Below, piece after piece: positions 31,620-32,549 of a stretch of DNA of 64,000 bases. Both the position numbers and the translations under genes were made by a program. The first letter of the stretch is position 1; the number at the start of each line of letters is the position of its first letter. The notes under the pieces were generated by a model that did no database searches, had not been told where the DNA came from, and was given only the letters and a program-made list of their open reading frames with translations. The DNA is taken from the NCBI RefSeq assembly GCF_044324875.1, contig NZ_CP172187.1. The stretch is one strand, 5' to 3'. This stretch comes from Escherichia coli. GTDB taxonomy: Bacteria; Pseudomonadota; Gammaproteobacteria; Enterobacterales; Enterobacteriaceae.

Positions 31620-32549
31620 TCAGCGATAAACCGAACGTGCAATGCGGGTATATGTATGCCTGACTCCGCGAATGGCAATACTATAAGCTAGGATGTTCTC
31701 CGGTAGTGCCATCCCCATATAGCCGGTATCACCAATATGGTGCAGATCGGCCCCTGCCATTTTGCTCATTAACGCTATTTGACGAATGGTGCTTATATCA
31801 GCACCTTCCTGGGACGTGCCAATAGCAGTCATCGCCAGTACACCATTGGCATGTGCGGTATCTATAAGCGATGTCACACGCTGCTGACTCATTCCGGGTA
31901 TCGTGCCTGGAGCCGGGATCAACACAATGTCTGCGCCTTGAGAGGCAAACCAGATAACATCCTCCTCGCTGATAATGCTGCTGCCACTTTCATGCGCCAC
32001 TCCAGCACCGTGCATTTTTCCGGTAATAATCACGGCACCATCCCCGATTGCCTCGCGAATATCTCTCGCTGCCAGCCCCAGAGCGCAATTGCTGACCCCG
32101 TTATTAGGATTACCTGTTAGCACCAGAATTTTTGCGCCCATATTAACTAGCTTACGGGCATTGTTAGCCGTTGCTGCCCGCCCTGATTTCATTTTCCAGA
32201 TATCGTCATGAGCAACAGCAAATTCAGGGTCTACGGCCTCCAGGTTCACACCAATGATACGGCCTGTCAGGCGTTGCAGTTCATGCAACGTTTGTTCTGG
32301 TGCAATACCTGCGGGTAATCCCTGAATATACGGATTTTCACTGTCAAACATATTAACCAGTAAAATATCTGCGCCCTGTGATGCAGCAAGTTCGGCATTC
32401 GTGACATTGTTCAGTAATGGCTGGGTAATCGCGATGGATTCGCTAACCATCACACGGCCTTCACTGGCACGAATAGCGTACAGAAGCCTGGTTTTATCCA
32501 TCGATACAAAATCGGAAGCACAGCAGTCCAGCAGCCGTTTATTGGTCAT
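31620..32549 (-). CDS. Enzyme-like protein of undetermined family, co-encoded with the PTS IICB gene
   Basis: 309 aa soluble protein with Gly-rich nucleotide/sugar-phosphate-like motifs; 4-bp overlap with upstream PTS gene. Confidence 0.45.
   Translation of the reverse strand: MTNKRLLDCCASDFVSMDKTRLLYAIRASEGRVMVSESIAITQPLLNNVTNAELAASQGADILLVNMFDSENPYIQGLPAGIAPEQTLHELQRLTGRIIGVNLEAVDPEFAVAHDDIWKMKSGRAATANNARKLVNMGAKILVLTGNPNNGVSNCALGLAARDIREAIGDGAVIITGKMHGAGVAHESGSSIISEEDVIWFASQGADIVLIPAPGTIPGMSQQRVTSLIDTAHANGVLAMTAIGTSQEGADISTIRQIALMSKMAGADLHHIGDTGYMGMALPENILAYSIAIRGVRHTYTRIARSVYR

Follow-up and report, generated by a model that had tools for sequence, protein, structure and literature searches.

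We analysed a 64,000-nt stretch of Escherichia coli DNA (RefSeq assembly GCF_044324875.1, contig NZ_CP172187.1; hereafter the window) and focused on a 309-aa protein encoded on the minus strand at 31620..32549, directly behind the gene of a phosphotransferase system (PTS) permease. The protein is a member of the Pfam family DUF7916 and was modelled as a cytoplasmic (β/α)8 barrel. We consider it probable, at about 0.7, that DUF7916 is an enzyme of PTS-delivered amino-sugar-phosphate catabolism. Three features of a PTS-coupled catabolic operon were found at the locus: coupling of the gene to a permease gene of the NagE (N-acetylglucosamine, GlcNAc) type, a divergent regulator of the GntR/HutC family, and recurrence of the pairing between DUF7916 and PTS genes in other taxa.

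The DUF7916 gene is the distal gene of the operon and comprises 930 nt with an ATG start. This ATG (32549-32547) overlaps the TGA of the upstream permease gene in a 4-bp ATGA (32546-32549) within AAGGAGGCGCTCAATGACC. A perfect Shine-Dalgarno sequence, AAGGAGG (32556-32562, minus strand), is located 6 nt before the ATG, within the 3' end of the permease gene. The 4-bp overlap with the permease stop had been described by an earlier sequence-only reading that named no strand; we confirmed it and assign it to the minus strand. An identical stop/start overlap was observed in the Serratia marcescens loci L104-L106 (loci are given L numbers throughout). Co-expression with the permease, also proposed from the sequence, is supported by the overlap, the internal ribosome-binding site, the S. 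marcescens arrangement, and the movement of the three genes together as a 3.4-kb block. The ratio of nonsynonymous to synonymous substitution rates (dN/dS) of the DUF7916 gene against its S. marcescens orthologue was 0.138, and that of the permease gene was 0.144, indicating that both genes are under purifying selection. Because the Pfam match has an E value of 1.1e-120, more than 5400 homologues were found, and dN/dS is 0.14, the gene can be regarded as far beyond a chance open reading frame (ORF).

The permease gene (32546..33943, minus strand) encodes a 465-aa enzyme IICB (EIICB) with PTS_EIIC and PTS_EIIB domains, the IIB cysteine motif CITRLR, and no IIA domain. The protein scored 573.6 bits against the NagE model TIGR01998, above the cutoff of 553.2 bits, and was 53% identical to residues 2-466 of E. 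coli NagE. The RefSeq annotation stops 33 nt short of the gene end and treats the gene as a pseudogene ("nagE, incomplete, missing C-terminus"). Since the orthologues in S. marcescens and Erwinia are of similar length (465 and 460 aa) and dN/dS is low, the gene appears to encode an intact IICB that naturally lacks IIA, and the pseudogene flag appears to be wrong. By established PTS biochemistry, this EIICB would rely on a IIA supplied by the host.

To place the pairing in a wider context, 80 species-level loci of DUF7916 were compiled, and their neighbours were checked by tblastn. PTS genes of the NagE or Lac type adjoin DUF7916 in at least 10 independent subfamilies and three phyla; these subfamilies include L012, L093, the L110 clade, L107, L010, L096, L097, L100, and L102. 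The gene order is EIICB-DUF7916-BglG antiterminator in L012 and DUF7916-EIICB-SIS_2-LacI in L093. TIGR01998 was the top or joint-top model for the Glc-family PTS in the window and in L003, L012, L093, L049, L107, and L110, and the transporter is thus classed by profile as NagE-type here and in every Glc-family PTS found adjoining DUF7916. An abundant actinobacterial clade carries a conserved DUF7916-EIIB-EIIA-EIIC operon in many assemblies. In a sister actinobacterial clade, seen in two assemblies, HPr is fused in frame to DUF7916 with an intact His15 motif and a linker of ~57 aa, and a second HPr-DUF7916 cluster is 69% identical to the first. The fusion proteins are 428-433 aa long (L107 664-1950, L108 1279-2565, and also P0435) and derive from uncultured, apparently actinobacterial assemblies. 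The operon of L107 has the order HPr-DUF7916, EIIB, EIIA(Glc), EIIC, small membrane protein, and canonical Enzyme I (EI), and is read from its genes as a complete PTS with DUF7916 as its only enzyme. With the HPr fusions, the PTS phosphorylation state might control the enzyme directly. An 85-aa ORF after EIIC, considered as a candidate HPr, is not HPr and looks like a small membrane protein. Other apparent fusions (P0142, P0175, P0206, P0212, P0215, P0251, and P0537) contain only a partial DUF7916 domain and were read as assembly or frameshift chimeras.

PTS genes of the Lac/chitobiose family adjoin DUF7916 in L010, L096, L097, Enterococcus faecium megaplasmids, and a Clostridium perfringens plasmid from chicken. 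The megaplasmids have the order GntR-AgaS-like-LacD-DUF7916-IIC, with a Lac-family IIC, and the C. perfringens plasmid has DUF7916-IIB-GH16-IIA-IIC-GH35. L010 contains GH4-MupG-DUF7916-GH4 together with an aminotransferase and an SIS protein. In L049 (Oscillibacter), DUF7916 lies beside a Cof-type phosphatase, nagA, a NagE-type EIICB, nagB, EI, and HPr. nagA and/or nagB were found within 8 kb in L049, L058, L064, L081, and L087; by a rough estimate, the chance of nag genes nearby is ~0.5% per locus. Further neighbours of DUF7916 are MupG, GH4, an AgaS-like SIS protein, LacD, GH20, GH42, and GH84. The gene "down", which lies directly downstream of the hospital-strain marker hyl_Efm on E. faecium megaplasmids, is also a DUF7916 member (L101 8995-9927, plasmid CP063612.1), and the stop-codon primer of Panesso et al. 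matches L101 9911-9927 exactly. RefSeq names hyl_Efm itself "protein O-GlcNAcase" (GH84), not hyaluronidase. The GalNAc (N-acetylgalactosamine) cluster of pELF_USZ (PMC9040824) contains no DUF7916, and no sialic-acid cluster was seen around the family, with NanA, NanE, and NanK present in 0 of 94 loci. The comparison of homologous contexts that had been proposed as a check therefore shows PTS coupling that is recurrent but not universal.

We examined the family assignment of the protein. Its Pfam DUF7916 (PF25509) match reached 402.6 bits (E=1.1e-120) and covered residues 7-309 on profile positions 1-296, that is, the whole domain at a score above the gathering threshold of 27 bits. The identical protein is named "DUF7916 family protein" in RefSeq. 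No NCBIfam model matched the 309-aa protein, and a search of PDB sequences with it gave no match. The more than 5400 homologues, retrieved by a word-indexed search, form 592 representatives when clustered at 50% identity. Literature searches (DUF7916, EF0769/Q837R2, and hyl_Efm biochemistry) returned no functional data, and the term "DUF7916" occurred in no searchable paper. The gene is thus catalogued, with a Pfam domain and a RefSeq name, yet its family has no assigned function. The sequence-only reading had found no assignable family; literally this does not hold, as a Pfam family exists, whereas in substance it does, as that family has no characterised member and no literature. A profile search led to DUF7916 and not to a well-characterised family with an obvious substrate.

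AlphaFold2 was run on a family alignment of 62 sequences, which was also used for all member counts. The model (pLDDT 95.7, pTM 0.93) contains eight β/α units forming a (β/α)8 barrel, with two extra N-terminal helices and two C-terminal helices. The structural check thus gave a confident triosephosphate isomerase (TIM) barrel with no close solved relative; its top Foldseek match is a GH168. All four glycine-rich motifs noted earlier are present in the protein, namely GADILLVNMFD (59-69), ILVLTGNPNNG (141-151), AVIITGKMHGAG (172-183), and GADIVLIPAPGT (205-216), and they correspond in the model to strands β2, β4, β5, and β6 with their C-terminal loops. From the alignment and the model, we listed E30-G31-R32 before β1, E37 on β1, the invariant E53 on α1, N66 and D69 on β2, N102 and E104 on β3, T145-G-N-P148 on β4, G177-K-M-H180 on β5, P212-A-P-G-T216 on β6, G244-T-S-Q-E248 on β7, H270-H271-x-G-D274 on β8, P283-E-N285 after β8, and R297-H298-T299 on the C-terminal helix. 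E248, at the end of β7, is conserved in 57 of the 62 members, and no His or Cys is invariant across the family. The glycine-rich loops of β6-β8 appear similar to those that usually grip phosphate in sugar-phosphate barrels.

Profile comparisons pointed to NanE, the N-acetylmannosamine-6-phosphate (ManNAc-6-P) 2-epimerase, which interconverts ManNAc-6-P and GlcNAc-6-P. When the DUF7916 profile was searched against PDB sequences, NanE of C. perfringens ranked first (E=3e-4), followed by Schiff-base barrels. Pfam NanE (PF04131) was the commonest secondary family, with sub-threshold matches in 17 of the 62 members (best E=4.7e-6). In hhalign, the probability was 76.7% with E. coli NanE and 88.5% with an alignment of 15 NanE sequences, compared with at most 2% against NanA, NagA, NagB, LacD, MupG, CutC, GH20, GH35, GH42, GH84, GH4, AgaS, EI, HPr, and Crr. 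Among characterised families, these comparisons linked only NanE to DUF7916 by sequence, and NanE-like chemistry would be the best available lead. Membership of the NanE family itself was rejected on signature motifs, on the essential Asp124, and on the gathering threshold of 27 bits: the query had no match to the NanE HMM (hidden Markov model) even at E<=10, and one checked member, P0111, reached 24.7 bits. NanE is accordingly kept as the nearest characterised relative only.

These observations can be combined into a working scheme. Following established PTS biochemistry, host EI, HPr, and a IIA-Glc-type protein would phosphorylate the IIB cysteine, the IIA acting in trans because the EIICB has none. 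The permease, whose class is established by its profile, would import an N-acetylhexosamine (HexNAc)-type sugar as its 6-phosphate. DUF7916 would then turn this sugar-phosphate in one step into an intermediate of the Nag pathway, possibly GlcNAc-6-P, by a NanE-like proton transfer at the barrel's C-terminal face. E53, K178, H180, E248, and H270/H271 are candidates for catalysis, and the β6-β8 loops PAPGT, IGTSQEG, and HHIGDTG may hold the phosphate. The GntR/HutC repressor probably binds the ATGGTnTA repeats described below and would be released by the sugar-phosphate, inducing the operon. Epimerase or isomerase chemistry is favoured because NanE is the sole family with a sequence signal, because the transporter class points to a monosaccharide, and because L049 would then hold a complete EIICB -> DUF7916 -> NagA -> NagB route. 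As a whole, the scheme of a barrel enzyme acting as the catabolic partner of a NagE-type permease is the best overall explanation, though we hold it tentatively and at somewhat less than even odds; NanE-like epimerase or isomerase chemistry specifically is possible but doubtful. A new reaction is unlikely, such as that of a cofactor-independent HexNAc-6-P epimerase of new specificity (GalNAc-6-P <-> GlcNAc-6-P) carried with a NagE-type permease as a portable two-gene cassette. If this were true, a sugar derived from mucin or the cell wall could enter the host's ordinary Nag pathway by way of the cassette.

Several results weigh against the assignment to PTS-delivered amino-sugar-phosphate catabolism or against its NanE-like form. 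Most of the 80 species-level loci have no adjoining PTS gene, and the idea that PTS adjacency is family-wide was rejected. In seven species, DUF7916 has only GntR as a neighbour and no PTS. For transport, the hyl_Efm cluster (ABC transporter-GH20-GH42-GH84-DUF7916) has an ATP-binding cassette (ABC) transporter and not a PTS. As E. coli already possesses NanE, NagA, and NagB, what the module adds would depend on its substrate. The similarity to NanE is local, covering ~78 columns in which DUF7916 194-284 (β6-β8) pairs with NanE 87-164 (β4-β6), a register offset of two strands. Two signature motifs of NanE, x-P-x-I-G-I-x-K-[KR] and V-G-[SG]-A-x-T-R, and four essential residues, Arg40, Lys63, Asp124, and Glu180 (SaNanE numbering), have been reported (PMC8482478). 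Both motifs, loosened forms included, are absent in 62 of 62 members. Asp124 aligns to Ala242, in a column of A/T/V; K178 may be the counterpart of Lys63, though in a single HMM alignment variant only, and Arg40 and Glu180 fall outside the aligned region. Position 178 is Lys in only 45 of the 62 members. Most close enterobacterial relatives have GntR adjoining DUF7916 without a PTS, most clostridial copies stand alone, and many clostridial loci have unrelated neighbours. The earlier proposal that the protein likely processes the imported sugar-phosphate is favoured by the recurrent PTS adjacency, the HPr fusion, and the L107 operon, support that is comparative and short of proof; the PTS link does not extend to the whole family.

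In an alternative reading, DUF7916 hydrolyses the PTS product, as either a new 6-phospho-glycosidase for a phosphorylated HexNAc disaccharide or a HexNAc-6-P deacetylase like NagA, AgaA, or ChbG. DUF7916 often lies among glycosidase genes, as in L010, the hyl_Efm cluster, and the C. perfringens plasmid, and the E. faecium megaplasmid cluster has no glycosidase or deacetylase besides DUF7916. A BglG-type antiterminator in one context, weak GH3 matches in 7 of the 62 members, the GH168 at the top of the Foldseek matches, and the conserved Glu248 at the β7 end are also consistent with a hydrolase. Conversely, hhalign gave at most 0.6% against MupG, GH20, GH35, GH42, GH84, and GH4 and 0.8% against NagA, β4 has GNP and no acid/base Glu, and the transporter belongs with the monosaccharide permeases of the NagE class, outside the MalX/α-glucoside class. 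The nagA genes in L049, L058, L064, L081, and L087 would also make a GlcNAc-6-P deacetylase redundant there. On balance, a hydrolase seems unlikely. A class-I-aldolase-like lyase or aldolase that cleaves or rearranges the sugar-phosphate, with Lys178 as the Schiff-base residue, is less probable still; the Schiff-base barrels rank behind NanE in the PDB comparison, and Lys178 varies among members as described above.

DUF7916 could also be a housekeeping enzyme unrelated to the transported sugar, placed behind the PTS gene by an accident of gene order. The scarcity of PTS or amino-sugar neighbours in most loci, the heterogeneous operonic neighbours (SseB-like, ProB, DUF5692, and others), and its status in Enterococcus faecalis as a core gene after rapZ-yvcK-whiA are in line with this explanation. 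Furthermore, the virulence of E. faecium in mouse peritonitis was unaffected when "down" was deleted (Panesso et al. 2011, PMC3039558). Against it stand the translational coupling kept in Serratia, PTS adjacency in at least 10 independent subfamilies, two PTS families, and three phyla, the HPr fusions, and the actinobacterial operon conserved in many assemblies, and we regard a housekeeping role as very unlikely. A part in PTS phosphotransfer or signalling, as an HPr~P-dependent kinase, a IIA surrogate, or an enzyme controlled by HPr binding, would fit the HPr-DUF7916 fusions (flexible linker, intact His15 motif, two divergent clusters), the missing IIA of the window permease, and the position of DUF7916 in the slot held by lacC (kinase) in a comparable E. 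faecium GalNAc cluster (PMC9040824), but is highly improbable given that the fused operon already has IIA and a canonical EI, the hhalign values against EI, HPr, and Crr were ~1% or less, the family lacks an invariant His or Cys, Lac-family contexts bring their own IIA, and many copies have no PTS neighbour.

Other classifications were rejected. Legacy RefSeq/GenBank product names of the family, "haloacid dehalogenase-like hydrolase" and "PEP phosphonomutase", are mutually contradictory. A haloacid dehalogenase (HAD) would have a Rossmannoid fold with a DxD nucleophile motif and a HAD Pfam match; the model is an eight-stranded β/α barrel, the query had no HAD-family match at E<=10, and 1 of the 62 members had one at E=0.023. 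A member of the phosphoenolpyruvate (PEP) mutase/isocitrate lyase superfamily would have a PF13714/PF00463 match and a specific structural similarity; both fold and HMM evidence speak against this class. Clan GH-A has an acid/base Glu in N-E-P at the β4 end and a nucleophile Glu at the β7 end. In DUF7916, β4 ends in T-G-N-P without Glu while β7 does carry E248, and the hhalign values against GH20/35/42/84 and MupG were those given above (<=0.6%). An EI surrogate, suggested by the HPr fusion, would show PEP-utilizers_C homology and an operon with no canonical EI; hhalign gave at most 1.1%, and a canonical EI ends the L107 operon.

We also determined the extent and distribution of the module. 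In blastn searches, the ~3.4-kb segment 31523..34921 was 95.6% identical at the nucleotide level to S. marcescens genomic DNA, with unrelated flanks. The GC content of the module is 0.49 versus 0.59 for the left flank. As judged from these alignments, the regulator, permease, and DUF7916 genes form one imported block, and an equivalent module is present in Serratia and Erwinia. Across the locus, the window matches E. coli plasmid p135-2 (NZ_CP080262.1; chicken, China) at 100% identity. An intact module was found on only 4-5 E. coli plasmids, at least 4 of them from chickens. By contrast, ~550 plasmids (375 Klebsiella, 174 Escherichia) carry only a 413-bp remnant corresponding to window 31400-31812, in which the final 192 bp of the DUF7916 gene are retained, and have a deletion matching window 31813-35323. 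Inside the deleted segment, at the right edge of the module, is a resolvase/helix-turn-helix (HTH) fragment of 92 aa annotated as incomplete (35014-35292, minus strand), which may mark how the block was inserted or lost.

The plasmid backbone beyond the 3' end of the module carries a YdeO-like AraC-family regulator (30503-31303, plus strand; NCBIfam YdeO 203 bits, below the cutoff) with a PerC-family regulator gene just upstream of it (locus L001 10877-11904); both regulators are also found on plasmids that have lost the module. Window 24467-29981 and the region further upstream (L001 1-10600) make up a resistance/transposon region with a Tn3 transposase, a truncated TnAs1-type transposase, a cysteine hydrolase, blaTEM-1, tet(A)/tetR(A), and a truncated ProQ/FinO. 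In S. marcescens, the flanks of the module (L104 3238-5259 and 10723-16143) encode IS66-family transposases, a 673-aa protein without a Pfam match, and an 1806-aa protein with a faint match to GbpA_2 (GlcNAc-binding protein). This suggests that the S. marcescens module resides in a genomic island with a chitin or GlcNAc theme.

The divergent regulator gene (34177..34926, plus strand) encodes a 249-aa GntR/HutC-family protein with Pfam GntR (winged HTH) and UTRA effector domains and no NCBIfam equivalog at cutoff. Regulators 53-83% identical to it adjoin DUF7916 in seven other species. Upstream of the permease gene, at 33988..34016 on the minus strand, three tandem ATGGTnTA-like repeats, ATGGTCTAC-AA-ATGGTACAT-AG-ATGGTTTA, form a candidate HutC-type operator. 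This block is conserved in S. marcescens and Erwinia while its flanks diverge, and two exact ATGGTNTA sites were found versus 0.02 expected per 233 bp. We infer that the repeats act as the operator. An imperfect palindrome, CTGGTT...AACCAG (34121..34154; 20-nt arms, 70% complementary), just upstream of the GntR start is also conserved in the Serratia and Erwinia alignment and is possibly a second operator or an autoregulation site. On the 3' side, 30 nt past the DUF7916 stop, AAUCCGGGA...UCCCGGAUU is predicted to fold into a stem-loop (31562..31590, minus strand; -23.7 kcal/mol, z = -1.9). It was not detected by intrinsic-terminator prediction and, because it has no U-tract, is at most a weak terminator or stabiliser.

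Two further neighbours of DUF7916 were seen in other taxa. A 349-aa DUF5692 membrane protein is encoded directly upstream on the same strand in L058, L064, L076, and L081 (Lachnospiraceae/Ruminococcus-type), followed in L058 by an ecfA-ecfA'-ecfT-truA operon, and DUF5692 might serve as a transporter partner that has gone unrecognised. In Erwinia, Cedecea, and Enterobacter sp. Ag1 (L003 8960-10864; L018, L019, L020), the gene directly downstream of DUF7916 encodes a 617-634-aa protein without a Pfam match; the window lacks it. At the N-terminus of this protein is GYSPTGGGHTGR, which we take to resemble the glycine-rich loop of GT-B glycosyltransferases.

Enterococcus plasmids with DUF7916 number ~190 (187 of the 223 matching plasmid records), and the family is also common in Lachnospiraceae and Oscillospiraceae of the gut. 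The results tie the family to loci of GlcNAc-type and Lac-type PTS and to clusters for host glycans, among them the hyl_Efm locus, a marker in clinical use, and make it a candidate, open to direct testing, for a missing step in the catabolism of amino sugars or mucin sugars. With its regulator, permease, and enzyme, the compact plasmid module is a ready-made test construct. The analysis also corrects database entries, namely the two unsupported product names and the apparently wrong pseudogene flag on the permease. The system is of a familiar type, a PTS catabolic module, built around an enzyme family without assigned activity; it is an experimental target and holds no surprise of principle.

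Finally, the module was compared with known systems. The "down" product is, like the query, a plasmid-borne DUF7916 protein (~39% identical over the full length) from a carbohydrate-utilisation cluster, whereas its gene follows ABC transporter and GH20/GH42/GH84 genes with no PTS gene, and it has no assigned function. NanE (PDB 4UTT/4UTU, 7MFN) is, like DUF7916, a small cofactor-free TIM barrel of amino-sugar-phosphate metabolism, a role that is putative for DUF7916. Both have GAD-β-strand units and a basic strand-end residue that is HMM-aligned 0-2 positions from the catalytic Lys of NanE. DUF7916 differs in being 80 residues longer, with two extra helices at each terminus, and in matching NanE over only three β/α units. 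Among PTS loci, E. coli murQP is a compact catabolic module of a PTS permease and an enzyme. The gamAP genes of Bacillus subtilis form a glucosamine PTS-enzyme module (PMC3648570). The window module shares with both a layout in which one Glc-superfamily EIIBC/EIICB gene is transcribed together with that of a single cytoplasmic enzyme under a dedicated repressor, and in both systems the enzyme converts a sugar-6-P to an intermediate of the Nag pathway. It differs in that its permease has no IIA and its enzyme is a TIM barrel, neither a NagB-type deaminase nor an SIS etherase.

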